A stretch of 62,136 nt of DNA, the filler included. It is 14 parts of 14 records of this genome, joined end to end, with 100 filler letters (N's around TTAATTAATTAA, not from the genome) between each part and the next. Parts side by side here need not be neighbours in the genome. Positions count along the whole stretch, not along the records: positions 57,874 to 62,136 come from SRR7504441_10823; 13 more parts are not named here. The stretch is one strand, 5' to 3'. A program made the translations under genes and the position numbers. The notes under the pieces are model-generated. The model did not search any database and was not told the DNA's origin. It saw only the letters and a list, made by a program, of their open reading frames with translations. Shown one piece after another: positions 3,201-61,768 of the stretch; the stretch's first letter is position 1; every line of letters starts with the position of its first letter.

Positions 3201-4772
3201 GCTGCTGCAGCACACGGCCTCGAGCAGTTCCGACGCCCTGAGCCTCCCATCGTGCAGCCGCTGCTGCGAGTATCGGAGCAGCAGCTCGGCAGCTTCATAA
3301 TAGCCGTCCTCGAGGTACTCGGGGCCCCGCAGCGCGGCAACACTACCCAGCTGGTCGTCCTTGCTGCCGTAGTGCAGAGGCCCGCGGTTGTCGCAGTCCG
3401 TGAGCATCACATCTGCCCTCAGTTCTAGCAGCGACGAGGCCAGCTCACAGTGCCCATCCGACACCGCAAAGTACAGTGCGCTCCAGCCGTCGTCGTCAGT
3501 CGCATCGATGTCCGCCCTTTCCTTCACCAACAGCCGGACCATCGCTATATCCCCCCGCTTGGCCGCAATACTGAGCGCCCGCACCCCGCCTGGAAGCTTC
3601 CGATTGACGTCAGTCACCGGACTGAGCGCTTGGACGCTCTCCAGGAAGCCTCCGACGGCCGCAAACAGCACTGCGGTCCACCCGGCGGCATTCGGGGTGT
3701 CCATTGGCACACCGGCGGCCAGCAGCCACTCTACCAACTCTATAGAGCCGGCCGCCAGCACGGGCAGCCTCTGGCCGCCGGGCAGTGGCTCGGCTGCCAG
3801 CTCGCACGCCTTCTCGCGTCCGGCCTCCGCAGCCACGTGCTGCAGGATCGCCAGCGCCAGCCCAAAGTGCTTGGCAGCACAAGCCCGACCGAGTGCGCTC
3901 CAACCCTCCTGGTCAGTCCCAGCTATCCAACCTACGGCCTCCTGCCCGAGCTGCTGCTTGGACGCCTCGAGCAGCAGCTGAACCGCCTCGCGCGCCCCCG
4001 CCCTCCCCGCCAACACCAGGGCGTTCTGTCCGAGCTGGTCGCTCGCTGTCAGCCCAGCTCGCGCCCGGAGCAGCAGCCCGACCAACTCGGGCCGCCCCGA
4101 GGCGTGCATGAGCGCAGTCCAGCCATCCGCGTCCGCCGCATCCAGCGGCGAAGTAACCCCCAGAGCACCCGCCGCCGCTGTGTGCCCTCGGCTGCACGCA
4201 AGCAGCAGCGCCGATTCGGCTCGGTCGGTGAATTGGCCTGGGTCAGCGCTGGCCACCAGCAGCAGCCGGATCGCTTGATCGTCGCCCCGGGCGGCCGCGT
4301 GGTGCAGTGCGGTCCACCCGTCCGCCCCTCGCCCCCGCACCGACGCCTTGGCCTGCAGCAGCGTCCGGAGCACCTCCGTGTGACCCGCCCGGGCCGCCAG
4401 CAGCACTGGCGGCGGCCCGGCCGGGTCGACCGCCGCTTTGTGCGCGCAGAGCAATTCGAGCACCTCCTGATGCCCCGCCCCGGCCGCCAAGCCGACCGCA
4501 GTCAGCCCCGACGGCTCCAGCGCGGTCCCAGGGTCGGCCTCGGCCTGGAGTAGCTCCCGGACCACCGCCAGGTTGCCCGCCCGGGCCGCGAGCATCAGCG
4601 CGGTCTCGCCACCGTCTGACGGGTCTAGCTCCGGCAGCCCGGGTGACTTGGGCGCGGCCGGGAGCTGGCCGGGCGAGGTGGGCTGGTCTAGCTCCACACC
4701 GTTCATCAGCGCGATTTGCAATGAGCCCACGTCCGCCTCCAGCACCGAGCCTGGCCAGCCCGGCGGATCCAT
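216..4772 (-). CDS. Ankyrin-repeat + TPR-repeat protein (one spliced gene joining ORFs 2586..4772 and 216..2504)
   Basis: N-terminal ankyrin motifs (GETALMLAARAGN, GWTALHHAAARGD, GWSALYFAVSDGH) and C-terminal kinesin-light-chain-type TPRs (HPELADSYMNIA, HPDILNTLSSL). Removing a GT-AG intron at 2552..2589 (38 nt) and a GC-AG intron at 2439..2481 (43 nt) joins the two ORFs in frame. Confidence 0.8.
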
Positions 4773-4831
4773 GCTGGCGGCCGCTGCGGTCTCGCACCTA
4801 GACTCAGGCCCTGCTACGCGCCGCGCTGCAT

Positions 4832-4931
4832 NNNNNNNNNNNNNNNNNNNNNNNNNNNNNNNNNNNNNNNNNNNNTTAATTAATTAANNNNNNNNNNNNN
4901 NNNNNNNNNNNNNNNNNNNNNNNNNNNNNNN
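4832..4931. other. Artificial contig spacer N44-TTAATTAATTAA-N44. It recurs at 9179, 19433, 22747, 26187, 30964, 35693, 38942, 42489, 46333, 50323, 53945 and 57774 (100 nt each).
   Basis: The identical 100-nt structure occurs 13 times, its core has stops in all six frames, and genes are truncated at these points. Confidence 0.98.
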
Positions 4932-19877: not shown

Positions 19878-22598
19878 TCACGTGGTAGATTTGTCACAAT
19901 TGATCACCACTAGCACCACATTGTTGGTAGCGCTCCCTTTAGAGAAGTCCAGTTGCAGCCTCATGCAGTGATCGGTCGAGTTGCGGCCCCAGCCTCCTGC
20001 AGGACCGCACTCTCCACCAGTGCTAATGGTCAACACACGCCCCAGTACAGCCGTGATGTTCCCAGGCTGCAGGTAGTCCACCTTGGCAGAATTCGGGGTG
20101 CAGTCAAGCCCGCGGAGCGTGACTTGCACCGTGCTATCGGCGCGCGCTTGAATGATCGGAGCTGCATAGCCCGCGGGGACGGCAAACAGGTTGGCCAGCG
20201 CATTGTTGCTTGTTACTTCGGCTGGCTGAGCTGCAAGGACCCACGAGCGGCCGCGAATAGCATCAAACAGGTGGCCATAGTCGGCAAACACTGAGTCGTA
20301 CGGGCAGTCTGGCGCACAGTCGCCTCCAATTGCATGATCATTGTTCTTGATGGGCACTGTGGGGAAAACTCCCGCCCACAAATGGGTCTGAAGCCCAGCC
20401 GCCACGTACGCATTGGACATGTTCTTGCCTGGATGGTTCCAAATGTAAGCCACCTTCGGCCCAAGCGTAGCTAGCGCCGTCCCGATGCCGTGGGCATTGA
20501 GTGAGCCGAGCGCCTTGGGGTCTGAGGTGGCCATGTCGCCCATCTCGGCATAAATACCGTCGGCGAATTCCATCATATCGAGCCGGTTCGAGTGGTCGTT
20601 GATGACCACAGCCTGCCCGCCGCTGTGCCATACCTGGCTGAACGCCGCCATTGCCAGCTTCCAACTGTGGATCATCGCCCGCACAGCCATGAACCCGCCA
20701 GCCACGGGGAGCCAGGTTCGGTGGTCGTCGGCGTTGGGGTTGACGGAGCCTAGCCAGTCTTGCCTGTCAATGCACACGCCAGAGGAGGGTACCGTCCGCA
20801 TCGATGTGTTGGCCATGTCCAGCAGATGGTCCAGGTAGGGCAGCTCAGGGTGCGGGTCCATGATGCAGCTGCCCTCCATCCCGCCACACACCAGCTCCCC
20901 GTGATTGGGCGACGGATCCTCCGGGCTGAAGAGCAAGGCCGGGGCGTACTTTTCTCTAATCAGCTGCTGGCTGTGGCAGAGCAGCTTGGTTCGGTTGGAT
21001 GCGGCCACAGCCGCTGCTGAGCAGTTGATCGTCTTGCGCCACGATTGCTTGACGTTCCAGCCAAACTCGAAAAGGTTGCCGTACTGGCAGCTCGAGAAAA
21101 CCGATCCGACTGCCGAGCCCATTCGCCTGATGTGCTCGTACCAGCCCGCAATCTCCTGGTAGCTCACGCCCATACAGCCCTCATTGGTGTGCCCATCCGG
21201 GGGCACATGCGCGAAGCAGGTCAGCCACTGGTCATCAAATCCATCTTTCTTCGTTGGAATCCACTCTCCGTGCCATGGGAACCTCGCTGATGAGTCCCAA
21301 TTCAGGCCCCACCCAAAGGTCTTATACTTTGCAGCGGCCGCGACATCCATGTCGGCCGGCCCGCGCATGTCGGCGTACGATCCGGTCCCGGCGATTCGAT
21401 CCATTGTGGCCGGACTGGCCTTGGGCTCAAAGAACTCCGGATAGCTATCTCTCAGAAACTTCCCCGCTGGCCTCCAGTCAGGCGCATGGGCCAGGATGTT
21501 TGCCGTGAACTCGACTAGCAGTGCATCCGACCCCAGTCGGTGATACAGCCGTGTCCAGTTCACGAACCCGGCCTGGCCGTCTCTGGCCGCAGCTGCAAAG
21601 GCCACTATTGGTGTATCTCTCGGTGAGTGCACCAAAGAGATCCCGAGCTCTGGCTCAATCACGCTCAGCACTGGTAGCACAGCGGCCGGCCCGTCGTTGT
21701 TCTGCTTCGGCCCGCCGATGTCGTTGTCGGTACCCCCGTAGAACAGCTTTGCCGACCCGCCTGGAATCGGGCCGCACGCTGCAACATATGGATTGCCGCT
21801 CGCTGGGTCTGTTCCCAGCCGGCAGCCGGAGGTGGCAGCGTACGAGTGCAGCGTGCCTGAGGCAGCCCAGCGTCCGTCGGTCCGGAACCAGCAGTCATGA
21901 GTCCGTTGGGCCCACGCGTAGATCGAGCAGCTGGCGCTGACCTCACACAGCTGCTGGCAGCCAGCTGCACTCGAAGTACGGCCCTTTGGCTGGCACGGGC
22001 CACTCAAGCAGCCATAGGTGGCGTCATACCCCTCCGCCACATACCACCCGCCCGACGGGCCCGTTGCCAGCCCATCCCCCGATGGATTCGGCAGCAGATA
22101 CGGCGCAAACGGGTCTGCTGCCAAGCTGGGCGGCGCCCCGGACCTCGGACCGCCCAGCCAGACCCTTGCGGTCTGGTTCCACCGCATGAACCGGAGCGCA
22201 GCGGTTATAGGGACGCCCCAGGGCAGCCGGGAGCTGGACCAGACCTTGGTGGCCCATCGGATGGTCCGTCCGTCCACTGAGAATTGGTCAGCCACTGTGG
22301 CGGCCGCACCGGTCAGGTTGTGGTAAGCACCTGGCTGGCAGACGAACTGCCGAGTGAGCACCGCAGACTGGGACCCGGTGGGCTCCAGGACCCCAGTGAC
22401 CAGCGTGCAGCCTTCGAGCTGAGTACCCGAGCCGTCTACCTCGAAGTGCCGCTCGGTGCCGCTCGGTGTCCGCGCCGCGATCTGCGCTATTCCGGCCCCA
22501 GTCAGGGTGACAGCGACCGGCCCAGCGTCGATCGTCAGCCCAGCCGCCCCTGCGAGCCCAAGCAGCAGCGGCAATGCCGCCCCAGCGTTCCCGGCCAT
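19878..22598 (-). CDS. Secreted ~900-aa protein with a PAN/Apple domain and a probable glycoside-hydrolase-like catalytic region
   Basis: Signal peptide MAGNAGAALPLLLGLAGAAG from ATG 22598; PAN-like CQQLCEVSASCSIYAWAQRTHDCWFR; barrel-like segments GVCIDRQDW and DGIYAEMGD. Intronless. Confidence 0.6.
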   Translation of the reverse strand: MAGNAGAALPLLLGLAGAAGLTIDAGPVAVTLTGAGIAQIAARTPSGTERHFEVDGSGTQLEGCTLVTGVLEPTGSQSAVLTRQFVCQPGAYHNLTGAAATVADQFSVDGRTIRWATKVWSSSRLPWGVPITAALRFMRWNQTARVWLGGPRSGAPPSLAADPFAPYLLPNPSGDGLATGPSGGWYVAEGYDATYGCLSGPCQPKGRTSSAAGCQQLCEVSASCSIYAWAQRTHDCWFRTDGRWAASGTLHSYAATSGCRLGTDPASGNPYVAACGPIPGGSAKLFYGGTDNDIGGPKQNNDGPAAVLPVLSVIEPELGISLVHSPRDTPIVAFAAAARDGQAGFVNWTRLYHRLGSDALLVEFTANILAHAPDWRPAGKFLRDSYPEFFEPKASPATMDRIAGTGSYADMRGPADMDVAAAAKYKTFGWGLNWDSSARFPWHGEWIPTKKDGFDDQWLTCFAHVPPDGHTNEGCMGVSYQEIAGWYEHIRRMGSAVGSVFSSCQYGNLFEFGWNVKQSWRKTINCSAAAVAASNRTKLLCHSQQLIREKYAPALLFSPEDPSPNHGELVCGGMEGSCIMDPHPELPYLDHLLDMANTSMRTVPSSGVCIDRQDWLGSVNPNADDHRTWLPVAGGFMAVRAMIHSWKLAMAAFSQVWHSGGQAVVINDHSNRLDMMEFADGIYAEMGDMATSDPKALGSLNAHGIGTALATLGPKVAYIWNHPGKNMSNAYVAAGLQTHLWAGVFPTVPIKNNDHAIGGDCAPDCPYDSVFADYGHLFDAIRGRSWVLAAQPAEVTSNNALANLFAVPAGYAAPIIQARADSTVQVTLRGLDCTPNSAKVDYLQPGNITAVLGRVLTISTGGECGPAGGWGRNSTDHCMRLQLDFSKGSATNNVVLVVINCDKSTT

Positions 22599-22978
22599 CG
22601 CAGCCGACACCCCGGAAGAGCAGACCGAAAGCAGACCAACAGCACTTCTTTTCTGCGTCTGATAGATCAAGGAATAGTGGAATACGGACTACCTGTACTT
22701 GATACCGGTTATCTGGTACATACCCAGACCCAGTTGCGAGCACCAGNNNNNNNNNNNNNNNNNNNNNNNNNNNNNNNNNNNNNNNNNNNNTTAATTAATT
22801 AANNNNNNNNNNNNNNNNNNNNNNNNNNNNNNNNNNNNNNNNNNNNGCAGCAACGCCATTCCCAACGGCGAGAGATATTACTCGACATCATTCATGACAC
22901 AGTTACTACTCCTACAATCATGATTAACTGCCGGAGCCGGTCTTTATACTAGTAAATGACTTGTTAGCTATTATCCCA

Positions 22979-25900
22979 TTATATTATCAAATGATTATCA
23001 AGCTGTCCGCCCACCCGCCACCGAGCTACCAATGCCTCAAAACTGCCACGCAACGCAGCTAGTTCAGCCGCCCCTTGCCCTTGATTGGTGCGTGGGCATG
23101 GGTCTTGACACTCGCTAAGCAGCTTGAGCAACCCCGCCCCTTCTTCGCCGTGCCCAGCCAGTGCGTGTGTCATCGCCTCGCCTAGCTGGCTCCGCAGCGG
23201 CACCACCAGTGGCCCTGGTCACTCATGAATAAACAAAGAAATGGCAATCACCGATCACGTCGGCTACCCGCGGAACGAGCTCCAACGGGAACGATTCGGC
23301 CAGCGCTTGAACTATAGCTGTTGCCAGCTGTGGCAGCGGCAGCGCAGCTGTGAATAGCTCGGCCATCTCGGGGGGACCGGTCCGAATCTTGACCTAAGAC
23401 ACACACAATAGAGCGTTCTGAGCCACACATCTTGTAAGGCTCGTTCTCAGCCACAGTTTTGATGGTTACATTTAGGGTTAGGTTTTTCTGGGTTACTGCA
23501 ATCCAGGCGAGCATTTGGATGGTTATTGCGACTGGCTGCGTCTCGGGGAGAGCCAGGCAGCCACACGCCACCTAAAATCAGCATGTTGTTAGAGAGCCAG
23601 TCAGAAAATCGCTTACCAAGAGCAGAGAGTGGAAGAGTGGGTGCCTCGGCAGGAGCTCTCCAGCGCAAACCTTTGAGAACAGTGGGTGAATAGATAGGTC
23701 ATAATACAGAGTGACCAGGTAAGCCATCGAGAGTTCAAACAATGCAGAGGCGAGCTGCGGCTGGTGCCGGTCGCTTTGGAGCTGTGCCAGTCAGTCACAG
23801 TGCAATGCAGAAAGGATTGGCTGGGGACCTGAGTGAGGATGCCGGTGCACGCTGCAGTGTAAACCTGGCCAAAGTCGGCAGCCAAGCTCGTCACTCCACC
23901 ATAGACGGCGACAGCGCTCGCGACCGCCCGCACCGCGTCTGGGAGCGTCACGGGGCTCTGAAGCTGGAGAGAAAACGCGTTCATAGTTGCTGGGAGCAAC
24001 GGCAGGAACCCAAGCCCAGCCGAACGCATGAGCACTGAGGCGAGCCGCTCAAACTGATGCGCCAGCTGCTCGTCCGGTGGGGCAGCAGCGAGCAGCTGGA
24101 GTAGCCCCGGCCAGAGCGGTCCAAACAGCCTCACCGCCAGGTGGGTCTCCTCTCCGGTCTGCCCGCCCCCGCGCAGTGGCCAACCTCTGACCATGGCCGC
24201 CAGGGCATCAAGAGGCGCACACAGCTGCTTAGGCCCCCTCACCTGTTGCAACCGGCCCAATTCTTGAGCCAACGGCACCAGCAGTCCCTGCAGCAGCGCT
24301 TCGCCCTGTGCTGTCCCACTCGCCATCCGAGACAGCGCTTCAATCACTTGCGCTCGGCTCTCGGGCTCGGGAAGCCGCCAGACAGGCTCAGTGCACGCGT
24401 GCACGAATTGGCTGAGCACTGCCGGCACGGCAGCCAAAGATGCCTTGCAGGTGCGGCTGAGCTGGAGCGCCGAGGCGGCGGCCGCTGTCGAAGCTTGCCC
24501 GCCGACCGCCAGCGCCGATGCCACTAGCCCCATTGCCTGTTGGAACACCTGCAGCTGCTCTGGGGCTTCGAGCTCCAGCGAAGCGAGCAGCCAGCCGTAA
24601 GCACCAACAAACCGCACTGCCGCTGCCGCGTGCCGCTCCCCTCGCAGCGGGGCCAGCGAGCCTATCACTGCGAGCAGAGCGGTGGCCAGCTCAGGCGCCC
24701 GCGGGCTGGCAGCGAGTGGCATCACACTCCCAGCCACCGCACTCAGCCCAAACAGCGCCGAGTCTGCCAGTCTCGGGCTGTCTCCTATCACCCGCTCAGC
24801 CAGCTTTAGAACCAAATCGGCCCCGAGCACGTCAACCGCGTAGCCGAGCACGGAGGCGGCCGTGTTCCGCCGAAATTGCTCGAGCTCAAACAGCTCGTCC
24901 TCGTTCAACTCCCCGTCGGCGCGCGACCGGCAGAGCACCGAGTCAGCGGCCTGCTGCCAGATCTCGGCCAGTTCGGACTGTCCGTCACTCGGCTGTTCGG
25001 CCAACCAATCCCAGAATTGAAGCCCGGCCTCGGCTACTAGTAAGACCGGGTGGCCCAGCGCGTCAGAGAGGAGCCCAGCGATCTGGCTTGACGGCTTGTG
25101 CTGCCCGACCTGCGCCGCCAGCCGGACGATGGCAAGCGCCGCGTCCTCGTCTGCCTCAGGGTCGTCGTGGTGCAGGCACTCAGTGACCGGCCCTAGAGGA
25201 TGCAGCGCCCTCGCAAGCGCCTCACTGGCCTCAGCCGCCAACTCCCCTTTCGAATTGACTACCCCGGCAATGAGCACCTGCCGCCGTTGCTGTTAGGCCC
25301 AGTTGGAATCCCGTTACCTCGGCCGCGTCGGCGCACAGCTCTGGCTGGCTTAGCATTTGGATCAACGGCGCAAGCAGTCCAGCAATGAACAGATGGTCAA
25401 CCGACACGCCGTGCGGCGCCCAGGCACTCAGACAGCGCACCGCCAACCGGATGTCCGTTGTAGATGGGCTGTGCACAGCTGCGACTGATCCGGGCGGGGG
25501 TGTGCCGTTGGTCACAAGCAGGTGCACTGCTAGTTGCAGCACGGCGGCCAGACACTGGTCCAGACATCCTCCCTCCGCTCCTGGAGGCGTCTCAGCCATC
25601 GTTCTCAACAGCCTCAGGGCCCGGTCCGCTTTCAGGCCGGAAAGCCCGTTGGCTATTAGCAACGAATAGCCGTTGGCCTGCCGGCGGGCCATCGCCGCAA
25701 TGATCTGGAGCACCTACACAGCCCCCGGATCAAATCCTCATCCCGGAAGGTTTAACCAACCTTCTCGAGCACCGGGCCGTCCAACTGCCCGGCCGCCGCC
25801 AGCATCCGTTGCGACAGCTCGGCCAGCGCCGGCAGCGACAGCTCGCCCACCCGGCGGAACACTGCGTTTGCCCCGAAGAAGGAGGCCTCGATCGACGGCC

Positions 25901-33231: not shown

Positions 33232-34768
33232 TTAACCCGAGGACACCGATTGTTGGATGCGGACACAAGCGTCGCCGCCATCACTGGCCGTGGGGACCGG
33301 ATTCACACTAACTATGTCGCCTACAACAGTCGCGTTCACATTGCTCGAAGTACTAACTGAGAAGCCGTGTGGGTAGTTGAACTGAGTGCTTGCAAAGATT
33401 TCTGCCAGCCGGTCAATTTGCCATCAAGCCAGGCTGCAGCACACCTGTCGGTGCCCGGATTTCAAGCTCCAGCTTGAAGCAAAAAACAAAATCTTTTGTC
33501 TGCGGGTCAAATGACATGTTCAGCGGCGCTCCTGCAATTGCGTAGGCATATGTGCGTGCCCACTGCGCAGCCTCTGTGCCATTACCCATGTCGAAATTCC
33601 AATCGATCCACGAAAAAAGCCGTTTGTCCAACGCGTTTCGGTTTATAATGCATTCTGACTCGTCAGGCGAGCACTGCATCCCTTCCGTCTGCATGGCCGC
33701 ACCACCAATCCGGTTAATGTCTGCCTGCACAGCGTTGTACACGAGCGGCGCCAGGCTGTCGTCACACACGACTCGCTGCAGCACTGGGTGGCCATTAAAC
33801 GAAGGCAGGAACGAATGGCAGTAATAATGATAGCTGTATGCGCTCCTATTCCTGTAGGCGTCGCCACCGGGCACATGTGTAAACCCAGCCCCGGAGAGCT
33901 TGCCGCTCCCGATCATCCCCCAGGTGGTCGGCTCATAGAACAGAATGTGCCGATCGTCGTGCTTCCTGATTGCTGCATTAGCCGCGTCGTACATCCGCTG
34001 GAGATTCAGTCTGCCCGCCACTCCAGGCAGCAGCAGTGCCGGGTTCTTGTAAAAGTCTCCCGCGAACGGCTCATTCATGACGTCGTAGCCGATGATCCCC
34101 GGCGTATCTTTGAACTGCTCAGCTGCATGCTCCCAGAAAGCTACAAAGTCGTCCAACATCCCGTTGTTGTTGTCAAAGATGTCCTGGTAAGCAGAGACGG
34201 ACGCCTCCGTGGCGATGTCAGTGCCGTCCCCCCGCGTTTGGCTGCTTGGCTGGCTGCTGCAGGATGCGTTGCCCTTCAACGGCCAGGGGAAGGGGTGCGC
34301 CGGCGGGGTTGCCTTGTTGATCACCCACAGCGGCACGCCGTCATACGCGCAGAACTTACTGCTCAGTCCATCCATCTGTACGTTCAGCAGCGAGTACACC
34401 CCGTGCCGTGCCAGCCTTTCCACCGTGGTCTTGATCACATCGATGTACGTCTGGTTGAACACACCGGGCGCCGGGTTGTAGCCCGGCCACATGAAGCCCA
34501 GCCGGCACACCGTTAAGCCCAAGCTCCGCATGTGGCTCGCCGTGGCGTCGTCGGCCGCCATCTCGGCAATGTACCATGGGGGGGACTTCTGCACGCGGTT
34601 TGAACCGTGGAAGATCCGCCGGCGGCCGAGCTCATCGTAAAAGTGGAAGTCGCCCAGTTGGTTGGACGCCCGAATCCAGCTGGTGGGAGAGGCCGCCGAT
34701 GGGGCAGCCAGCCATACCAACAGGGCACAGCCGACGACTCGCAAGTACGCACCACACGCCGCCATCAT
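33232..34768 (-). CDS. Glycoside hydrolase family 5, endoglycoceramidase-like, secreted
   Basis: GRRRIFHGSN, RLGFMWPGYNPAPGVFNQTY, acid/base GYDVMNEPFAGD, SYHYYC, nucleophile MQTEG and ARTYAYAIAGAP. Signal peptide present; one 3' intron (~33403-33445) leads to TAA at 33232. Confidence 0.85.
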
Positions 34769-34938
34769 TCCTACCCTGTCTGCCTGTGCCGAGGTGCTCT
34801 GCGTTGACGGCGTGGCACACCTGTTGCCCGGACCCAGGCCCAGTGCCGTCGAGGTGTGCAGCTGGCCGCACGTTTTGGCCGTTGGCACCTGTCCGGAGAA
34901 CCGCGCACCTGTCAGCAAGTGACCAGGGCAAGTGACCG

Positions 34939-35640
34939 ATGGGCGGCGGCGACGGGTTGGCCGTGCTGGTCGCTGGGATCGCGGCGCTAGCCAGCGTGCT
35001 TCATTCTGTCCGGCGCCTACGGCTGCCCAAGCGTCTGTGCTGCCCTTGTGGTGCAGTACACCTAGAGTTCGGCAGTGGGCCAGTGCTTGGCAGCGTGGAT
35101 TGCGGCTGCGAGGATTGTAGGGCTAGACTCTCCTGGACGGCCGCGCAGGCCGGTGGATCTCCGGTGCCTGCGCCAGTGCTGAGCTTTGAGCGCGGAGTGA
35201 GGGCGATTTATCTGGCCAACAGCTTCAAAGTGCTTGCCGGATGGGATAGGCTTCAGTTCTGGAGGCTGCGCGAGGGTGGAACCCAGACGATGGCGGTGTG
35301 CAGCAGCTGCTCGGCCATGGTGCTTAGCCACGCCTGGTACTACCAAGGCAATGTAGTGGGCGCTTCGTTGGATTCCGTTGGCTACTCGGGTCCGCCGCTC
35401 CCACCTCAACCTATGGCCCGGGTCAATTATAGGAGCTTCCCTCCGGACAAGATTGGTCCCGGCGCACCGGTGATCTACGGCGACGAGCCCAACGTCAACG
35501 ACCTGCTGTCGGAGTGCTACAACGGCTGGGCCTTCTTAGGGTTGCCGCCCGTCAGAATCAAAGACGGGATCTGCTTTGGGGAACTCCTCGAAATATCCGG
35601 TGGCGAAGAGTCGGTACAAGCATGCTTGCCGCTTGAATAG
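34939..35640 (+). CDS. GFA/Mss4-like (CENP-V-like) zinc-binding protein
   Basis: Cys pattern CPCGAV...CGCEDCR...CSSCS with a hydrophobic N-terminus; intronless. Confidence 0.6.
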   Translation: MGGGDGLAVLVAGIAALASVLHSVRRLRLPKRLCCPCGAVHLEFGSGPVLGSVDCGCEDCRARLSWTAAQAGGSPVPAPVLSFERGVRAIYLANSFKVLAGWDRLQFWRLREGGTQTMAVCSSCSAMVLSHAWYYQGNVVGASLDSVGYSGPPLPPQPMARVNYRSFPPDKIGPGAPVIYGDEPNVNDLLSECYNGWAFLGLPPVRIKDGICFGELLEISGGEESVQACLPLE

Positions 35641-35792
35641 GTTTAGTCAGCTATGAATGGCCTAATTGGCCGTACTTGATGCACTCCTTACCNNNNNNNN
35701 NNNNNNNNNNNNNNNNNNNNNNNNNNNNNNNNNNNNTTAATTAATTAANNNNNNNNNNNNNNNNNNNNNNNNNNNNNNNNNNNNNNNNNNNN

Positions 35793-37927
35793 GTAATACA
35801 TTTTATTGGGTTCGCGGATACCAGCCAGAACGTCGTGAACGACTACTTTGAAAGGCACCTGCCGATGGCAGCCAGGGTGGGGGCGCAACTGCGGGGGATG
35901 CGCGGCAACTTCACAGACCATCGGCTCAACTTTATGTTCCACTCTTGGATCCTTGACATGTTCTTCAACTGCCCTACTGGTATGGGCCTGCACTGTCCTT
36001 CGGTCGCCAGCAAAGCCAACATCTCCAGCGCGATCGATGCCGGCGACATCAGCTGGCACGCTTTCCCGCACAACGCCCAGCCCGCCGTGATGGACCCGGC
36101 TCTCATCCGGGCGGGGCTCGCACTCACCTTTGCGCTCGATAGCAAGTTTGGCCAGCCCTCGAAGCGGGTGCTCTCTCAGCGGGATGTGCCAGGCCTGACA
36201 AGGTCCCTGATTCCTATTCTAAAGAGCCGGGCAGTAGACGGAATCAGCATTGGCGCGCACGAGGACGCTAACCACGCGGCGCGCGTCCCGCCGTGCTTTG
36301 TGTGGCGCGACCCACAGTCCAACCAAAGCCTTATCGTGCTGTATACGTGGCCAGGGTATGGTTCGCTGCCGCTCAGCAACGAACAGGTATGCATTGTGGA
36401 CGGTGTCGCAATAGTATATAATTGGGCCGGCGATAACCACGGTCCTCTTCCTGCCGAAGCGTACGATGCCGCCTGGTACTCGATTGCTCAGTCTTTTCCG
36501 AACGCGGCTGTCTACGCCTCGACGCTGGACAACTTCACACATAAGCTGCTGGCTTTGCAAGAGAGGCTGCCAGTGGTCGATCAGGAGTTGGGTGACGATT
36601 GGATCTACGGTATAGCCTCAGACCCTCACAAAACAAGCCGGATGCGCGTGATTAACCGAGCTTTTAGAGCGGTTGACGCCCGAGCCCCGTTGGAACAGGC
36701 GCTGTCTGCAGATCCGGTGCTCCGTAACGCCACTCGGTTCTTCCTCAAAAATGGCGAGCACACTTGGGGCTTGTGTCCGCTCCAGCACTCATCACGCGAC
36801 AAGACCAATTGGCGGAACAGTCAGTTTGAGTGGGCCCGGTCAGCCTCCAATTGGAGCTCGGAGTATCGAACGATGGAGGACAGCTGGTGGGAGCAGCGCC
36901 ACTGGGGAGTGACACTCGGGATGCAAGCACTCGCTGCAGCCCGCCCGGGCAGCCCTGCGGCGGCACTGCGAGGGATGATCGAGCGAGGGATACAGGAGCT
37001 ACAGCCGGAGCCACCGTCGATTGCTGGATACAGACAGGCAAATGTCACCGAAAAGTTCAGCTGCGGCGCCACTGAGATCGGGTTTGACGGCGCCGGCGCG
37101 ATCAGCCACTTGGTGCGCGATGGGCTTGTCTGGGCAGATCCAGAGCATACGCTGATTCAGCTCAAGTATAGGGCATACACGGCAGCAGAGGTGGGCGCAC
37201 AGCAGTCGTCGGGCGATTACGGCAAGTCCGGCATGCCGAGCGAGATCGAGGGTGGTCTCTGGGCAAGCCAGCTCCGACGTCTGTATGCTAAACAGGGCGA
37301 GCTGTGCTCGTTTGTGCTTGAGACTGGCTTTGATGCAGAGGCGTCCACAGAGTATGGCGCTCCTGGCTCGGTGTGGAGTCAGATCCAAGTTACGAGCAGC
37401 GGGATCAAGACGCAAGTGACTGTGCTAAACAAGACCAGCACTCGGCAGCCGGAGTCGATGTTTGTACAATTTGCGCCGGCGGGCAACACGAGCCAGTGGT
37501 GGGTGGACAAACTGGGATCCTGGGTGGACGTAAATGACGTGGTGGATGGAGGCTCAAAGCACCTGCACGCCAATATGGAGCGAGGTATCCGGGTAGAGAC
37601 GGCTGCAGGCAATTGGATGTCGATAGCTGCCCAGGATGCTGCGATTGCAAGCTTTGGAAACCTAACTGCCTATCCGTATCCGGTGCATGCCGACCCCGAT
37701 ACAAAGGATTATGGGGCCTCTTTTGTGCTTTTTGACAATCTCTGGGGTGCTTGCCCCGGTTGGGAGAGTGCAGTCTGACTGTTGCGATAGGTGTGAACTA
37801 TGTACTGTGGTTCCCATTCTCAAAAGATAACATGGCGCCCCAAGCCTATGCAGCTTCAAACACATATTTCCCTGCAGAATGGAACAAGCACTTGCTTTCT
37901 CGATTCGAAATCACGTTCGCTGGCTAA
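35793..37927 (+). CDS. DUF5054 / GH38-like putative glycosidase; 5'-truncated, one 3' intron
   Basis: HFIGFAD at the contig edge, ISWHAFPHN, QRDVPGLTR, GDNHGP, ELGDDWIYG, EHTWG, SWWEQR and FDNLWG|VNYVLWFP after removing a 44-nt intron. Confidence 0.7.
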
Positions 37928-42735: not shown

Positions 42736-43911
42736 CTAGAGCAGACTTGCCCTTGACGACTCGGCATTGATGGCCTCAAAGATGGCCATAAACTCATCAG
42801 CATTCGCGCTACCACTCACCACCCTAGGGTCCGGCTTCCGGCCGCTGAGCTTGGGCCTAAACGGGCCGCCGCTGGTGCACGGTCCATTGAACACGAACAG
42901 CGGGATCGAGTGAATCTGATGCTCGTGCACCATAGCGCTGTAGCTCTGCCACACCTCGCTCGTCAGCCGATCGCTCTCCAGGAACCGGAGCGCCTCCGCC
43001 GGATCCAGCCCGGCCCGCTCGGCCGCCTCGAGCACGGTGGCCCGGATGCACGAGCCCTTGTTCTGCGTAAAGTGCAGCTGGGCCAGCTCCTCCGCCAGCT
43101 GCTCGGCCTGCCCACACTCGCCCGCCCACATGATCAGCCGCTGCGCCTCCACCGGGTGCCACGCGAACTGCTGCCGAAACGAGAACTGGATCCCGGCCTG
43201 CCGCCCCAGGCTCGAGAGTCCAGCCTGCGCGAGCTCGCCCAGGTGCTCGTCAAACACACTCAGCCGCTTGCCTCGGGCCGACTTGGGCTCCCGCCCCGGG
43301 CGCCCTTCGGCCTCGGTGATCCTTCGCTTGAGTCCGGCCAGATCGGCAGGCCTGCCGGTCATCTGGGCCATGGCCTCGATCCCCTGGACTAGCCTCGAGT
43401 CCTGCAGCGCCCGCGCCGGGTCGCTCCTGAGCATCTCGGCGTGCGGCAGCAGCGGCCGGAGCTGATTGATCACAGCGTCCCCGGCGTAGATGCACAGCCC
43501 GTCCCCCCACTCCCAGGACTCGTCCCCGGCGCGCTCGCCCCCGTGGAACGAGAACGGCCGGCGGGTCACGTCCAGCTCTATGCCAACCGTCGGGTGCTTG
43601 AGATGGAACCGGTCCAGCGCGGCCTCGATCCAGCGCTTGCCGACAAACCCGTGCGGTCACTGAGTACAGGTCACGAAGTCGGCCTCCACCAGTAGCGATT
43701 TGGCCCGCTGGCCCCGCCGGATCGAGCCCGGGAGGAGGTTGCGGATCGGGCCGGCCGGCGCAGGATCGGGGGCCAGCCAGTAGGCCAGGCTGTCCTCGTC
43801 CGAGTCCTCTGTGGCCGCCGGCTGCACCAGCAGCTCAGTGGCCCGCTCGAGCGCCGGGTCGCCCGGCTTAATGAACGCCAGTGTGCCTGAGTGCTTTCCG
43901 CAGTTGCCGGC
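42736..43911 (-). CDS. DsbA/FrnE-family thioredoxin-fold protein, probable selenoprotein (in-frame TGA at 43657..43659); start codon unresolved
   Basis: DFVTCTQ(TGA)PHGFVGKRWIEAAL aligns with FrnE SDxxCPWCYIGKRRLExAL. Also RRPFSF, EAQRLIMWA, AGLDP, cis-Pro loop IHSIPLFVFN and VSGSA. The frame is open for ~84 codons upstream of the TGA, the gene ends at TAG, and a SECIS-like hairpin follows. Confidence 0.8.
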
Positions 43912-45408: not shown

Positions 45409-46143
45409 CTAGACGCTATCGAGCCCGTTCCTGGCCATGACAGCCCGGAGCGGTTCTAGCCCGACCCCAGCCCGGATGATCCCGTACTTGCCCGGCTGCG
45501 ACAGGTCGACCACAGTCGAGCCAGTCCTCCCCTCAACTGGGATCACTCCGCCGTCCAGCACCAGGTCCAGCTCGGGCCAGAGACTCTCAAAGTCGCCCGG
45601 ACACACCGGGCTGAGCGACCCACTCAAATTGGCGCTGGTGAGCGCCAGCCCGCCGCCGGCCTCTCGGCAGACTTGTCGGATTAGCTGGTGACTTGGCACC
45701 CGCACCCCCACGCTGGTGTGCTCCGGGTTGAGCATCGGGTTGAGCCCGGGCGCCCGGGCGAGCACCAGCGTGTACGGCCCGGGCAGCAGCGCCTCGAGCA
45801 GCCGGTCGGGCAGCTGGTCCACCTGGGCGTACCGGCCGATCTCACGCACGTCGGCCACGCAGACCGCCACCGGCTTGGAATAGTCGCGGCCCTTGATCCG
45901 GTACATCCGGTCCACCCCGGCGTTGTTGTCCACCGCGCAGCCGATCCCGTACAGCGTGTCGGTGGGCAGCCCGACCAGCCCGCCCTGCCTCAGGGTCTCA
46001 CCGCTCAGTCGGACCGCCGCCCTGGCCTCCGCCGGCGATCGGGCAGGCATGACCGTCGAGTGCCCCAGCGGCCGGACCAGTCCCGACGGCCCGGCGCTCG
46101 CGATCGGCTGTCGAGGGCCGGCGGCCGCTAGAAATGCATGCAT
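45409..46143 (-). CDS. YRDC: Threonylcarbamoyl-AMP synthase (YrdC/Sua5/TsaC)
   Basis: LPTDTLYGIGC, YRIKGRDYSKP, LLPGPYTLV, VGVRVP, LTSANLSG and GSTVVDL. The start is inferred at ATG 46143. Confidence 0.92.
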   Translation of the reverse strand: MHAFLAAAGPRQPIASAGPSGLVRPLGHSTVMPARSPAEARAAVRLSGETLRQGGLVGLPTDTLYGIGCAVDNNAGVDRMYRIKGRDYSKPVAVCVADVREIGRYAQVDQLPDRLLEALLPGPYTLVLARAPGLNPMLNPEHTSVGVRVPSHQLIRQVCREAGGGLALTSANLSGSLSPVCPGDFESLWPELDLVLDGGVIPVEGRTGSTVVDLSQPGKYGIIRAGVGLEPLRAVMARNGLDSV

Positions 46144-46435
46144 CCTCCGAATCTCTTCAGGTGCGCGCCCCCGTGGTGTGGCCGCGCCTCGTTGCCGTTG
46201 CTCTTTTTGATTGGCCGCTGCCACGCCCTGCCTGTGTGGGCTGGGCCGCATCTCCGTGCGCCAGTGGCTGGCCGAGCAGGAGCGCGGACACCGGCCTGCC
46301 CCACTGACTGGCGATGGACCGGGATGATGTGCNNNNNNNNNNNNNNNNNNNNNNNNNNNNNNNNNNNNNNNNNNNNTTAATTAATTAANNNNNNNNNNNN
46401 NNNNNNNNNNNNNNNNNNNNNNNNNNNNNNNNAAG

Positions 46436-49400
46436 ATGAGCAAGCCCCAAGCCCCTCCAAGAAGGAGGGCGGCAAGCAGGAGGGGGTTACGGTTGTGGCA
46501 CGGTTCCGACCGCTAAACGAGCAGGAGTCGGTGTCCGCCCTGGCCGGGGACGGCCCCCCGTTTCTGTGCAACCCCAATGGACACGTCGAAGATAAGCGGC
46601 GCGGCACGGTATACCAGCGCTTCGACAGGTCTTCTTCGGCGGGCGCCGCTGCTGAGCGGCGCGTCGGCAGACTGCTGGATCCATCGGCTACACAGCGGAC
46701 GTGCTACGAATCGACCGCCAAGGAGATGGTACACGAGGTGCGCCGGCCAGTGTCGGTGGACTGAGGCGCCGGCAGGTGCTGGACGGTTTCAACGCCGGCA
46801 TGTTTGCCTATGGCCAGAGCGGCGGCGGGAAGGTGAGTGCGTTGTGATGGATAGATCTGATTGACAGTAGCTGAGTTGGTCTGGGGCTGACCGTGCTGCT
46901 GCAGACGTACAGCATGCTGGGTAAGGAAGGAGACTTGATAGGTACCCCCAGCCCAGCGCTTGCAAGAGCTCGCGCAGGCGACTACCGGGGGATCGTGCCA
47001 AGGGCGATGGCTGACCTGTTCTATGAAGCCAAGCGGATGACCGCAGACAGTAATGGGTCTGTGGAGGCGAGCTGTCTGCTTAGAATAGCGCTGTTACTGT
47101 TGGGGCCAGGTGAGTACCTATATTTCATTCTTCGAGATCTACAAAGATGAGCTGTAGCCAACGCATGGCCTGGCAGGGGTGACGGTAGGCCGTGCAGGTA
47201 CGATCTTCTGCACCAGGATCCGTCAGGGAACAATGTCAAACTGGGCGGACGCGAGAACAGGCGCGGCCGGAGTGGAGGCCGACTGAACCGGTTTGCTTTA
47301 GGCACTTGGAAAAACTCAAGGAGTACGCTGTAATTACTGAGGAGGAAGCAAATCAGGTCAGGTGACTCCAAACGCTCGGGTGAGTTGGTGCAGGTGGTCC
47401 AAGTAGGACAGGAGCGCCGCCGGTATGCATGCATGCCGCTCAACCCGGTGACAAGGCTCCAATCAGCAGTCGCTGACGACCCGGTGGTAGGTTTCGAGTC
47501 GCTCGCACGGCGTGTTAATGCTTAAAGTCAAGAAGCGGTATCAAGACACTTCTGTGGCCCAGTCAGCTCTCTATTTTGTTGACCTGATGGGCTCCGAGGC
47601 TCTAGTGGCCAGTCGAGAGGGCAGCTTTGACGAGACGACTACCATCAACCTTGATTTGCTTACACTGGGCAAAGTGATATCGCTGCTTGGTAAGAAGGCC
47701 AACAAAAATGTGGCGCCGCCATATCGAGACTCCACACTCACCTGGGTGCTGCGCGATGTGCTCGGAGGTAACTGCAAGGCAACCGTGCTCATCACCTGCT
47801 CCCCACACCAGATGCAGTACACAGCCACCCAGAACACGCTGGAATTCGGCGACCAGTGCAAGGGGATTCAGCGTCGGATTGCTCAAGTAGAGAAAAAGCT
47901 AAATGTCAAGGAGCTCGAGAGCATGTTGCTACAGCTTCGACAGGAGCTTGCGATGAAAAACCTCGAAGTGTCAACTGCCGGGCCATCAGACGCCACCAAG
48001 GAAATGATCGAGCAGCTGGAGCGATCAAACCATGCGCTCGAGACGGAACTCCGCCAGACCGAAGAGAAGCAGGTGTTTCATCAACAGGAGTACCATAACA
48101 CCCTTCAAAACTTTGAAAAGTGTGTAGCTGAGGCTGAGGCCGACAAGACCAAGGTGAGCCGATTGAGACTGAGAGTAGGCAAGCCAGCATGCTGTGCTGA
48201 GAATGGCCGGTCACAGGCAGAGAGCAAGCTAGCCAGCCAGATTCTGGTGACCTCAACACTCAATGCTGAGGTGTGGCCTGAATTCTTCCTAGTGACTGAT
48301 AGCTGTCTGCAGTTGGATGGGCTGCGCAAAGCTGTGCAAGAGGCGCAAGGCGAGGAGGTGTTGAATGGAATACGGTCCAAGCTGGTGGCTACACTCTCAG
48401 AGTCGCAGCGGGCTGCGATGGGATCTGGATTAGGACGGGACGGGACTGGATTAGAGGCGATGGTCGAGGAGCTGATTGGTGACAGGGAGACAACGGCGCT
48501 CCAGTTGACACATACTGAGTCGCTGCTGAGTCAAGCTAAAGGCGACCTCGAGACCAAAGTGCAGGCAACTCGCAGAATCAAGCCAGGGTTAGGGTAGATG
48601 TGCGAATTCTTGGGCTTAAACCGTAGTCACTTACAGCGTTTGGCAGATCATCCAAGCGCTCAAAGAGAAGCTTTCGCGGAGCAAGGAGGCGCAGGAGCGG
48701 GCGGAGCTGCGCTGGAGTGCCCAACTGGAGCAATCGCATGAGCGCTGCTATGGGCTTGAAGGCCAGATTGCCCAGCTTAGATCGCAGCTGGAAGGCGAAC
48801 AGGCCAGGGCAAGAGAGGAGCGAGAGCAGATGCGGCAGACATTACTTGCTGCAGAACACGATGCAGAGGACGCCGAGGACGCCTTGCTGTGTCTATCGCC
48901 ACGAGGCAAAGCTGCAACACTAGCAGATGCTGCCCAGGCCGAGGATCCAGCCTCGCTGGGCGATGTGCTTGCGAGGCTCAAGGACAGGCTGAATGATGCT
49001 CGCGGGGAGGTTGCTAGTCTCCGGGAGCGGGAGACGCTCCTTGAGTCAACAGTGGCACAGGCCATGGATAGGAACGCTGAGCTTTCAGCTGAGTTGAGCG
49101 AGGCTAAAGCTCGTGAAACGAGCTCACTTAACCAGAAGATTCAAGTGGACAATGAGTTGGTGAAACTGAAGCAGGCGATGGAGAGCCAGGAGCTCGAACA
49201 GAGTAAGGTGATGGCCTCTCTGGATCAGCAGGTGCTATGGCCTCATAGCTTGGGATGCCTTTTGCAATGTATTAATAACATGCAATGCCTTCTAGGTGTT
49301 GGCTGCTCACACCGAGCTTGATGGGCTGCGGAACGAGATGATGGCCTTGAAGCAGGATAAACTCATCTCAGACAGGGCCAAGGTTAGCTTAATTATGCGT

Positions 49401-58881: not shown

Positions 58882-59016
58882 CGGCCGCCGTCCACAGGCT
58901 GCAGGCCTGCCACTGGAGCCCCGCCAAATGGGTCAAGGTCGTGCCGCCCCGTGCGCCGGTCGTGCTGAGCCGAGCGGGTAGCACGAGTGCGATGTGCCCT
59001 CACGAAAAAATCAGCA

Positions 59017-61768
59017 ATGCAGACCGTGGCCGAGCAGCCGCCGGCGAGGCTGCCCAACTCGGCGGGCGGATACGAGATGGTCGGGCAGATCGGGGTCGGG
59101 GCCACCTCGCAGGTGGGCGGGGCGGGCGGGGCGGGCGGGGGGCGCGGGAGCTGGGGGCAGGTGTGGGCGGCCAAGTGCAGCGAGACGGGCGAGGAGGTGG
59201 CGGTGAAGGTGATCGACCTGGAGCATGTGAATACCAACCTGGAGGAGATCCGGAACGAGATCCGGGTCATGTCGATGAGCAACCACCCGAACGTGGTCCG
59301 TTACCACTGCTCGTTCGTGCACAACAGCCGGTACCTGTGGGTGGTGATGCCGCTGATGCACGGCGGCTCGGTGATGAACGTCATGCAAGCAGCTGAGACC
59401 CCGCTGGACGAGGAGATCATCGCGTACGTACTGCTGCAGGTGCGCCGCGCGGTCGACTGCTTTATAGTATGATAGTGCAGTGCTGTAGTAGTGGCACAGG
59501 CAGGTGGATGACTGGCGGCTGCAGGTGCTGCACGGTATCGAATACTTCCACCAGTCAGGCCACATACACCGGGACATCAAGGCCAGCAACGTGCTGATCG
59601 ACCAGATGGGCCACGTCTTCCTCGGCGACTTCGGCGTTTCGGCCGCGCTCGCCGACGCGTACAACGCAGAGAGTCGCGAGCTGCGCCAGACGTTTGTGGG
59701 CACGCCCTGCTGGATGGCCCCGGAGGTGCGCACGGCGCTGTCGCAGCCGGGCAGCCCTGTCGGCAGGTGATGGAGCAGATGAGTGGGTACGACCAGAAGG
59801 CCGACATTTGGTCGTTTGGGGTCACTGCGATTGAGATGGCACAGGCAGCTCGCCGGACCGTGCCCTCGTGAGCGCCGGGTGCAGGGTAAGGCGCCGTACG
59901 CCGGGTTCGATCCGCTCAAAGTGCTGCTGCTCACGCTCAAGAATCCGTCGCCTACGCTCGCGGGCAAGTTCTCGCCCGAGCTGAACCAGGTGGTCAACTC
60001 GTGCCTCCAGAAGGATCCGGCGCTCCGGCCATCCGCCCAGCAACTGCTGGAGATGCCGTTCTTTGTGAGCGCGGCCGCCAAGCACGAGGTGGGCAAGCTT
60101 GTCAGAATCATACAGAACCTGCCTCCGCTGATTGAGCGGTTCCGGATCATCGAGTCGAGGAACAAGCAGCCGTCCAGCGGAGTGTGGAGCCTCAACAAAA
60201 CCGAGCTTGCCTCCGCACTCGAGCCGCAGGCCCCGGAGGACCCGGCGTCCAAGATCTCGTGGGACTTTGACTCGGTCGACAGCCCATCGCGCCGGGATGG
60301 CGAGGAGGACGAGCCAGAGTCGGATGGACTGGTCCAACTCCTCGAAGAGCTGCCTGCAGAGATCTTGCTCCCAGAGGTGCCCGGGACGATTGTACGGTCG
60401 GAGGGCAGTTTGGAGGGCACCGACCAGACGATCAGCCTGAACGCGCTCGAGCAGACTGGGGCGCTCAAGTCGACCTCGGAGAGTCAAATGCTCACCTGGG
60501 TCCAGTTTGCCGCAGTGGGCACCGCCGAGGAGAGGATTCAGCATGTCACCAGGTGCCCAGCCGAGCGGGCAAGCTGAGCCCCGGGCAGGCTGCGGCAAAT
60601 CGCCACAGTCCAGCAGCCGAACGTGCCAGCGGTCCGGTTGTGTGGGATCAGCCCAGTCTCTGGGGCTGTGGTGCTCATATGTGAGCGAGTCCCATCGACC
60701 ACGGTCTGTCCCACGCTACGGCTGGAACCGAAGCCGGCTGCAGGTGCACTCTCACCTGCTGTCCGAGGCTCCAGCCGGTCTCGAGCTCCCGGTCGCCCAG
60801 GGGTGGTGCGCCCAGGTGCAGGCCGCGGGATTCGGGGGCTGAGCGTCTGCAGGTGCTGGCGGCGCTCGTGGCGCTGCATGCGTGCTCGCCGCCGATAGTC
60901 CACCAGGATCTCTCGTGCCAGAAGATCCACCTGTACAACAACGGTACGATCGACGCGCGTGCCAGCTCACGCCCAGCAGCAGGCAGCTCTCAGCGGACAG
61001 CCAAGCTAGGTGGGATGCTCCTCTCAAGCCCACAAGACGAGACAGTAGCAAATGGAGCGTTCGTGGCGCCCGAAATGTACGACGACGAGCACGCAGCCAC
61101 CCCCAAAGTGCGCCCGGCCCGTCTGGGCTCGATTGGGCTGGGCAGGTGGATGTTTATGCGCTGGGGCTGTGCGCGCTCCAGATGCTCACTGGGCGTGAGC
61201 CTTTCGCCGAGTGTGAGAAGGCGCACCATCTGTACCGCAAGGCGCGGCCCAGCTCACTACCGGCGGCTGAGCGCGCGGGCTAGGTGAGCACGGGGCTGCC
61301 GCCGGACTCGCTAGAGATGGTGGCCGACCCAGCTGCTCGCGACTTCATCCAGAGCTGTCTCGCGACTCTAGATCAGCGGCCAGCGGCGGCAGACCTAGTC
61401 AGTCACCCATTCCTGCAGGTGAGGCTGCTGCAGGCTAGCTGCAGGCTGGTCTGATTGCGGGCGCAGGTCCGGAGGGTTTATGTGGCGGCTGCTGCTGTCA
61501 AGTCGCACGCAGGTGACGGCTGAACGCTGGCCGGTGCTGAGCGGCTGGGTCAGGCAACCGGGTGAATCTGAGCCTAACAATCGCGGTCGGTACCAATAAG
61601 CACAAGGAGATTGCGTTTGACTTTGATATAGAAAAGGACACCTCGCTAGGGATTGCGACCGAGATGGTGGGCAGTGTGCCTGTGCTGGCCAAGGGCGGCC
61701 CGGCCATATCCATGGAGATCAAAGAGAGCATAGATAGATTGATAAGGTCTCTACATGTAGATAAATAA
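59017..61768 (+). CDS. OSR1/SPAK-like STE20 kinase fused to a WNK/NRBP-like pseudokinase and a C-terminal CCT-like domain, multi-exon
   Basis: [23 protein letters not shown] and [30 protein letters not shown]. Then [43 protein letters not shown] and [18 protein letters not shown]. Then [20 protein letters not shown]. The frame is continuous after removing ~12 short introns. Confidence 0.85.

Follow-up and report, generated by a model that had tools for sequence, protein, structure and literature searches.

Positions 59017 to 61768 (plus strand) of a 62,136-nucleotide stretch of DNA (hereafter the window) were confirmed, by comparison with related sequences, to be a single gene predicted to encode a tandem kinase-pseudokinase protein. 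By its motifs and homologues, the N-terminal half of the predicted product is a catalytically intact kinase of the OSR1/SPAK (Fray) type in which the T-loop and, as judged from alignment, the S-motif have been kept, and the C-terminal half is, according to alignments and a predicted structure, a WNK-family pseudokinase followed by a CCT-like domain, collinear with the kinase-CCT1 region of WNK3. The OSR1-type kinase and a dead copy of its usual upstream partner, two tiers of the cascade for sensing salt and volume, would thus be combined in a single protein. We consider it probable (about 0.6) that this dead WNK module forms the non-catalytic docking or regulatory half of the OSR1-type enzyme.

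The spliced product of 59017-61768 constitutes one open frame of 751 codons and a stop, in 12 exons separated by 11 introns that were placed by reading frame and homology. The ATG at 59017 is the first one past an in-frame stop (58966-58968), and the terminal TAA occupies 61766-61768. The introns are 36-85 nucleotides long with a GC content of 59-92%, nine being of the GT-AG and two of the GC-AG type, and every acceptor is followed by a G. A word-indexed search with exon 5 retrieved a relative, P0001, a protein of 752 amino acids encoded by an environmental contig of 2,284 nucleotides (L002). The 751-residue product could be aligned with P0001 end to end, with 511 of 738 aligned positions being identical (69%) and all 11 exon junctions free of gaps, so that the single frame claimed by the first-pass annotation, running from a STE20 kinase through an acidic linker into a second kinase fold and a C-terminal domain, is borne out. 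Contig L002 carries a single uninterrupted open reading frame (23-2278), the ATG of which is preceded by a TGA in the same frame and which is closed by a stop, and cluster mates of P0001, with 752 and 770 amino acids, were present in other assemblies.

The junction on which the fusion depends is that at intron 5, a 36-nucleotide GT-AG intron dividing the β3-αC region of the second fold. Its ends had been predicted exactly (60553-60588), and it encloses the TGA (60575-60577) that closes the unspliced frame. The flanking residues, HVTR and LRQIA on its two sides, match HTQRLRQIG of P0001 without a gap. In contig L001, from the organism of P0189, the OSR1 C-lobe, the linker and the pseudokinase likewise lie in one frame (2-1258), interrupted solely by a 46-nucleotide GT-AG intron further on, and two N-terminally cut proteins, P0009 and P0187 (38-45% identity), also cross the join between kinase and pseudokinase. 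The possibility that the first gene stops at TGA 60577 and is followed by a separate downstream gene was thus not borne out, since the TGA is intronic and both L002 and L001 are continuous there. In addition, splicing was seen in RNA contigs for two of the 11 introns, in two studies. Intron 2 (59440-59524) is skipped, with 0 mismatches, in oligo-dT RNA contigs from two runs of a single study, X8 and X12, and is kept in DNA run X1, and the 42 nucleotides at 61242-61283 (intron 9) are skipped in an RNA contig of poly-A run X15 (another study); the joint of intron 9 can be moved up to 3 nucleotides downstream, with the +2 placement alone yielding GC..AG ends. Judged by the runs that match parts of it, the organism is marine, although the shares were small and exact spliced contigs numbered only two. 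The features of the gene, all on the plus strand, are as follows.

59017-61768, plus: whole coding region, 12 exons, 751 codons and stop (end-to-end alignment with P0001)
59017-59112, plus: exon 1, N-terminus and Gly-rich loop GVGATSQ (gene model, P0001 alignment)
59113-59160, plus: intron 1, 48 nucleotides, in frame
59161-59439, plus: exon 2, VAVK, αC and hinge (Pfam Pkinase 50.1 bits)
59440-59524, plus: intron 2, 85 nucleotides, GT-AG, RNA-spliced (RNA contigs)
59525-59725, plus: exon 3, kinase core into T-loop (Pfam Pkinase 65.1 bits, motifs)
59726-59766, plus: intron 3, 41 nucleotides
59767-59844, plus: exon 4 (gene model, P0001 alignment)
59845-59884, plus: intron 4, 40 nucleotides, GC-AG
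59885-60552, plus: exon 5, end of kinase C-lobe, S-motif region, SWDFDS acidic patch, acidic linker and start of dead kinase
60553-60588, plus: intron 5, 36 nucleotides, GT-AG, containing TGA 60575-60577; fusion-making junction (P0001 alignment)
60589-60703, plus: exon 6, αC to β5 of dead kinase (gene model, P0001 and WNK alignments)
60704-60743, plus: intron 6, 40 nucleotides
60744-60815, plus: exon 7 (gene model, P0001 alignment)
60816-60852, plus: intron 7, 37 nucleotides
60853-61107, plus: exon 8, DLG replacement and FVAPEMY (gene model, WNK alignment, motifs)
61108-61145, plus: intron 8, 38 nucleotides
61146-61241, plus: exon 9, VDVYALG..PFAEC..HLYRK (Pfam Pkinase 16.4 bits, below cut-off; RNA contig X15)
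61242-61283, plus: intron 9, 42 nucleotides, GC-AG, RNA-spliced (RNA contig X15)
61284-61418, plus: exon 10, VSTG..DFIQSCL..HPFLQ, end of dead kinase (gene model, P0001 alignment, RNA contig)
61419-61466, plus: intron 10, 48 nucleotides
61467-61512, plus: exon 11, spacer (gene model, P0001 alignment)
61513-61553, plus: intron 11, 41 nucleotides
61554-61768, plus: exon 12, CCT-like domain with stop codon (28.4 bits for Pfam OSR1_C against a cut-off of 22.4)
59071-60067, plus: predicted OSR1/SPAK-type STE20 kinase domain with all catalytic motifs, amino acids 19-279 (Protein Data Bank (PDB) search, motifs)
60068-60274, plus: post-kinase extension with S-G-Φ-Φ motif and W-D-F acidic patch, amino acids 280-348 (aligned to named OSR1 proteins, Drosophila and red algae)
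60275-60487, plus: acidic, poorly conserved linker, amino acids 349-419 (42% identity to P0001; predicted local distance difference test score (pLDDT) <50 in a relative's model)
60488-61418, plus: predicted WNK-family pseudokinase domain, amino acids 420-665 (PDB search, WNK alignment, Foldseek, tree)
61562-61750, plus: predicted CCT-like (PF2-like) docking domain, amino acids 684-746 (Pfam, PDB search, AlphaFold2 model, Foldseek)

The two ends of intron 2 (59429-59443 and 59514-59528) share an 11-nucleotide direct repeat, GCTGCAGGTGC, which leaves the splice point ambiguous by 11 nucleotides, and direct repeats of 3-7 nucleotides are found at the ends of the other introns. The 11 introns showed no similarity to one another (best local score 12), and no introner family was apparent. 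Two further candidate introns were ruled out: removal of 60944-60993 would break the frame, and P0001 carries an insert at this place, 4 residues shorter; removal of 60681-60743 would also break it. The intron load is very uneven along the contig, with 11 introns here and many neighbours being uninterrupted frames of 400-936 codons. Opposite the kinase gene lies an antisense open frame of 490 codons (59011-60483, minus strand), most likely a by-product of the sense-gene composition in GC-rich DNA.

For the N-terminal half, with P0001 as the query (its kinase domain being 87% identical to that of the window), the best matches in the PDB were SPAK (7.3e-81) and OSR1 (3.2e-80), followed by MST3 of the next family (1.9e-64), and named OSR1 orthologues were among the best homologue matches. 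In the window itself, exons 2 and 3 matched Pfam Pkinase with 50.1 and 65.1 bits, respectively (cut-off 31.7), and the spliced product contains the complete set of catalytic motifs, namely the Gly loop, VAVK, HRD, DFG and MAPE. The T-loop threonine motif (59684-59778) is identical to the activation segment of SPAK over 16 residues, in agreement with the near-identity to OSR1/SPAK noticed in the first-pass annotation, and we take its threonine to be the WNK target site. The kinase domain is followed, in this order, by LPPLIERF, the SSGVWS motif and the SWDFDS acidic patch, of which the latter two align to the SG(R/I)(L/W/Y) and W-acidic stretches of proteins named OSR1 in Drosophila and the red alga Porphyridium; the PDB alignment with SPAK ends short of the motif. 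The serine of SSGVWS is presumably the S-motif site phosphorylated by WNK, as judged from the alignment. Numbers of the WNK target sites in OSR1/SPAK are given in the accessible parts of PMC12266122 and 10.1101/2024.02.13.579840.

An R-F pair directly after LPPL.ER (ERFRII, 60134-60151) was found in all five CCT-bearing members. Of 110 other OSR1-like proteins, five have it as well, and 30 have an R-hydrophobic pair. As an internal ligand of the CCT, this motif is too weak to claim.

For the C-terminal half, the intact C-half of P0001 matched Pfam Pkinase with 45.8 bits. When it was compared with the PDB, the best 15 of 60 listed sequences were all WNK1 or WNK3 (1.9e-26 to 1.2e-22), followed by PAK3 (9.2e-11), and the best alignment, with the kinase-CCT1 didomain of WNK3 (5o2c), extended from the kinase through the CCT (query 53-345, chain 73-365). 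An AlphaFold2 model of P0007, a natural C-terminal fragment of 432 residues, had a mean pLDDT of 66.7, with values of 80-95 in the C-lobe, 63-77 in the N-lobe, 66-80 in the CCT and <50 in the linker and activation segment. A Foldseek search with this model again placed 5o2c first (1.6e-19, 385 columns), the listed ranks 1-25 being all WNK1/3. In a maximum-likelihood tree of 43 kinase domains, six fused C-domains and 10 WNKs were split from 27 STE20 domains at 100/100. Together with the PDB matches, this grouping speaks against a placement of the second domain outside the WNK/NRBP clade, and the motifs quoted in the first-pass annotation were all found in the spliced product. The WNK C-lobe signature, PY.EC...Y(K/R)(K/R)V..G, is kept.

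The searches yielded WNKs but no NRBP sequence with which the domain could be compared. Seven of the 13 non-family matches in a homologue search with the C-half were named WNK and none NRBP; the named matches of two such searches were WNKs (plant, mammalian, diatom and green algal), with NRBP-named sequences accounting for 0 of 15 and 0 of 41. NRBP1 was also not among the 60 listed PDB sequences for the C-half, nor among those for mammalian WNK4. A language-model search gave an 'NRBP homolog' as its top cluster (0.97), which we treat as a lead only. The claim that a recognisable Gly-rich loop is missing holds for the loop itself, but a degenerate N-lobe with β strands and αC is present in the model, so the fold is whole. 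The C-terminal CCT-like domain was supported by a match of exon 12 to OSR1_C above the cut-off; it is, however, not an independent third part, since it trails the dead kinase, after a gap of 18 residues, as CCTL1 does in WNK3 (5o2c). In the marine clade, OSR1_C was matched by every one of the seven members (E up to 0.003), with three of them scoring above the cut-off.

Alignment with five WNKs showed that the second domain of the window has no Gly-rich loop, no β3 lysine (LTWVQF), none that is reliable at β2, and no αC Glu. Its catalytic loop reads HQDLSCQK, compared with HRDLKCDN in WNK, and AKLGGM takes the place of KIGDLG, the missing DLG/DFG Asp having been correctly noticed in the first-pass annotation; P0001 shares these changes. 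All six fused second domains in the alignment have other residues in place of the β3 Lys, the αC Glu, the HRD-K-N set and the DLG Asp, and five of them in place of the Gly-loop/β2 Lys. HxD is kept in the window and P0001. In P0009 it has become HGA (HGALRCDH, with no DLG), and in P0187, P0188, P0189 and P0190 it is HGA, HRA, HMA and HRA, respectively; because the Asp has been lost in these five, the sole catalytic residue kept in the window is not a conserved one. A lysine near the degenerate β2 of the window (GALKS) is not conserved in P0001 or P0009 either. By these alignments, the residues on which ATP binding and phosphotransfer depend have disappeared from the second domain.

Identity between the window and P0001 was 87% in the kinase, 57% in the post-kinase extension, 42% in the linker, 66% in the pseudokinase, 44% in the spacer and 69% in the CCT; for P0187, the respective values were 65, 44, 25, 40, 17 and 55%. 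The CCT core, KEIAF.F....DT..GIA.EMV, is invariant in all four aligned C-halves. We also observed that Glu 565 (61036-61038, DETVANG), present in the window and P0001, aligns with the serine of AKSVIGTPEF in WNK4. We assume this serine to be the activating phosphorylation site of WNK; if so, the dead fold would have a built-in phosphomimetic.

With P0001 as the query, 1.84 billion representatives were searched exhaustively and without a profile, and 150 proteins were listed. At least 18 of those listed have more than one kinase domain, and at least four, P0009, P0013, P0131 and P0157, have an OSR1-type domain first and a WNK-side domain second; the other 14 multi-kinase proteins among the matches listed are repeats of STE-like domains. 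P0013 is from Eutreptiella gymnastica (A0A7S1J7P2), P0131 is the 'fray2' protein of Diplonema papillatum (KAJ9443669.1), and P0157 is a EukProt entry of Rhynchopus euleeides, which scored equally with both queries and the placement of which rests on the tree. P0157 stands at rank 149 of the 150 listed, and more distant members may lie below. None of the three euglenozoan forms has a CCT. In the 43-domain tree, the six fused C-domains group together at 94/83, on long branches flagged by the program, and the N-domains of the fused proteins fall in an OSR1 polytomy, with those of the euglenozoans not being grouped with that of the window. The nearest named relatives of single domains are of red and green algae for OSR1 and of plants, a diatom and Micromonas for WNK.

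Compared with known systems, the protein resembles OSR1/SPAK (Fray) in its best-matching kinase domain, identical T-loop motif, S-G-Φ-Φ and acidic W patch and C-terminal CCT-type domain, but differs in that its S-motif region and its CCT are separated by a whole WNK-like kinase fold, and the CCT is placed like that of the WNKs, which it also weakly resembles in sequence. In both sequence and fold, the C-half runs collinear to the WNK3 kinase-CCT1 region, and it keeps the WNK C-lobe signature; unlike WNK1-4 of animals and the plant WNKs, it has no β2 catalytic lysine, Gly-rich loop or DLG Asp (with its chloride-site context) and no long disordered C-terminus, and it is fused behind its own substrate kinase. 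With NRBP1/NRBP2 (Madm), it shares the combination of a dead kinase from the WNK neighbourhood and a CCT-type domain. NRBP pseudokinases are described, in the portion of PMC12266122 available to us, as being without VAIK, HRD and DFG and as having a C-terminal CCT-like domain; the domain described here likewise has no equivalent of VAIK or DFG, shows HQD/HGA as a degraded HRD and is followed by a CCT, a likeness of design and not of descent. It differs from NRBP in that the CCT comes about 20 residues after the fold, the WNK-type PY.EC is kept and the module is fused to OSR1. A BC-box (Elongin B/C) region between pseudokinase and CCT is unlikely, as the spacing predicted from the sequence is only 18 residues. 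The euglenozoan two-kinase proteins have the same order of an OSR1-type kinase and a dead WNK-side fold, but lack a CCT, and their N-domains do not group with that of the window. In JAK JH1-JH2 and GCN2, too, a single chain holds an active kinase fold together with a dead one of presumably regulatory role; these proteins belong, however, to other kinase families with other domain orders, whereas the dead fold here derives from the upstream kinase of the active fold itself.

Full-text literature searches, viewed as titles and abstract starts, yielded no description of an OSR1-WNK fusion, and supplementary kinome tables might list such proteins. Two-kinase relatives were already in public databases under generic names. 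The protein combines known kinds (OSR1, WNK/NRBP and tandem kinase-pseudokinase) in a new variant and is not a new kind.

In the reading that we favor, the C-half would fill the role that the C-terminal CCT has for OSR1 in animals, and perhaps also that of NRBP1. The CCT would dock to RFx[V/I]-type motifs, both those of an upstream active WNK and those of substrates, for example cation-chloride cotransporters, and the pseudokinase would pair with the kinase domain of WNK or with the OSR1 domain itself, gating phosphorylation of the T-loop and S-motif; the likely outcome would be that a marine cell regulates its ion and volume homeostasis by this route. These steps would parallel known ones: in the accessible part of PMC12266122, the C-terminal CCT of canonical OSR1 is reported to bind RFx[V/I] motifs of WNKs and substrates, and NRBP1, a pseudokinase related to WNK and equipped with a CCT-like domain, is reported to pair with the kinase domain of WNK, to which it binds as an activator; FRAY, according to the part of PMC3218828 available, 'usually co-occurs with Wnk' across eukaryotes.

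A complex prediction between the OSR1 half and the pseudokinase-CCT half of P0001 gave a score of 0.00 and no verdict, and was used neither way. Several points weigh against this reading. CCT docking cannot be the whole story, because the three euglenozoan forms have no CCT. When the exons of the second fold were scanned singly, there was one Pkinase match, that of exon 9 (16.4 bits, below the 31.7 cut-off), and none for exons 6, 7, 8 and 10; the identity of the fold, with so little Pfam signal of its own, therefore rests on the intact C-half of the relative. The CCT alone matched CCTL1 and CCTL2 of WNK1 weakly in the PDB (E 0.22-0.26), with no OSR1/SPAK CCT chain being matched at E up to 10, and OSR1_C fell below the Pfam cut-off in four of seven family members. 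None of the RNA contigs, from four runs, spans 60011-60818, including the fusion junction, or most of the other introns, an absence that is not informative on expression; the fusion junction in this organism therefore rests on the relatives. Furthermore, the called proteins P0188, P0189 and P0190 (329-349 amino acids) start at a Met about 20 residues ahead of the pseudokinase, so that a stand-alone pseudokinase-CCT form, made from an internal start, is possible in some relatives; in L001, the Met start of P0189 (position 596) is internal to the longer frame with the OSR1 C-lobe.

Among the alternatives, a direct cis switch in the style of JAK JH2-JH1 or GCN2, with the dead WNK fold packing on the OSR1 domain of its own chain or of a dimer partner and with no active WNK being needed, appears unlikely. 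The kinase-pseudokinase pairing recurs without a CCT in the three euglenozoan proteins, by which the pseudokinase itself appears to be a selected partner; its conservation exceeds that of the linker; and tandem kinase-pseudokinase regulation is established for GCN2 (PMC12867742, in its accessible part). However, there is no contact evidence of any kind, the disordered linker of about 70 residues implies no fixed arrangement, and the T-loop and S-motif sites, having been kept, suggest that an upstream kinase still acts. We give somewhat less credence to a collapse of the WNK-to-OSR1 cascade into one chain, in which the dead fold would keep the conformational response of WNK to ionic strength, chloride or crowding and pass it directly to OSR1 with no active WNK, the coupling having arisen more than once (in the marine clade with a CCT and in Euglenozoa without one). 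If this were true, the WNK fold would be, at root, a sensor and a partner of OSR1, and not only its kinase.

WNK itself once seemed dead, and the second domain might be an active, unconventional kinase that phosphorylates the OSR1 T-loop in the same chain, as a collapsed two-tier cascade. We regard this as very unlikely: the window keeps the HxD Asp and APE (HQD, APE) and the lysine in GALKS, and the Eutreptiella form retains a WNK-like GAGSYK loop, but that lysine is not found in P0001 or P0009, the HxD Asp has gone from P0009, P0187, P0188, P0189 and P0190, and the DLG Asp, the catalytic-loop Lys/Asn and the αC Glu are absent from every member. It is more improbable still that the C-half is a functionless remnant of a WNK being lost after a chance fusion; its catalytic residues have all been lost and it evolves faster than the N-half, but relatives with as little as 38-45% identity retain it complete and with its frame open, and its fold, C-lobe motifs and CCT core are much better conserved than the linker. 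Finally, an artefact of the gene model, in which an OSR1-like gene with its stop at TGA 60577 and a neighbouring WNK-like gene with its start at ATG 60488 were fused only in silico, is hardly credible, for although an ATG is present at 60488, the called proteins of three relatives start near there and this organism's RNA contigs leave 60011-60818 uncovered, the two reading units would overlap, the TGA falls within a consensus 36-nucleotide intron that splits a conserved helix, and the join lies in a single frame in L002 and L001 and is also crossed by P0009 and P0187.

Elsewhere in the window, two adjacent long frames, 10527-11876 and 12181-14550 (both minus strand), each matched the UCH ubiquitin-hydrolase family in different parts of the profile and probably represent a single USP gene that is divided by an intron or an insert. 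Pfam families were also found at 216-2519 (minus, TPR_12), 2586-4880 (minus, ankyrin repeats), 33413-35119 (minus, GH5 cellulase), 35745-37775 (plus, DUF5054), 42736-43653 (minus, DSBA-like), 45409-46377 (minus, Sua5/YrdC) and 47491-48594 (plus, C-terminal part of a kinesin motor). Three long open frames, at 14569-17208 (879 codons), 19878-22685 (935 codons) and 23613-25289 (558 codons), all minus, had no Pfam family at E up to 1e-5, and Rfam and tRNA scans of the window found no non-coding RNA.

The pairing of WNK with OSR1/SPAK is ancient, and the two co-occur (PMC3218828); NRBP1 is a key activator of the WNK pathway in animals (PMC12266122), as far as the accessible parts of these two sources go. 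As a Rosetta-stone case, the fusion suggests that a non-catalytic partnership between the WNK fold and OSR1 predates animals and has been selected in its own right. The gene may thus offer a compact, single-chain system for studying how a WNK fold and a CCT control OSR1, and also for studying ion and volume control in abundant uncultured marine protists.

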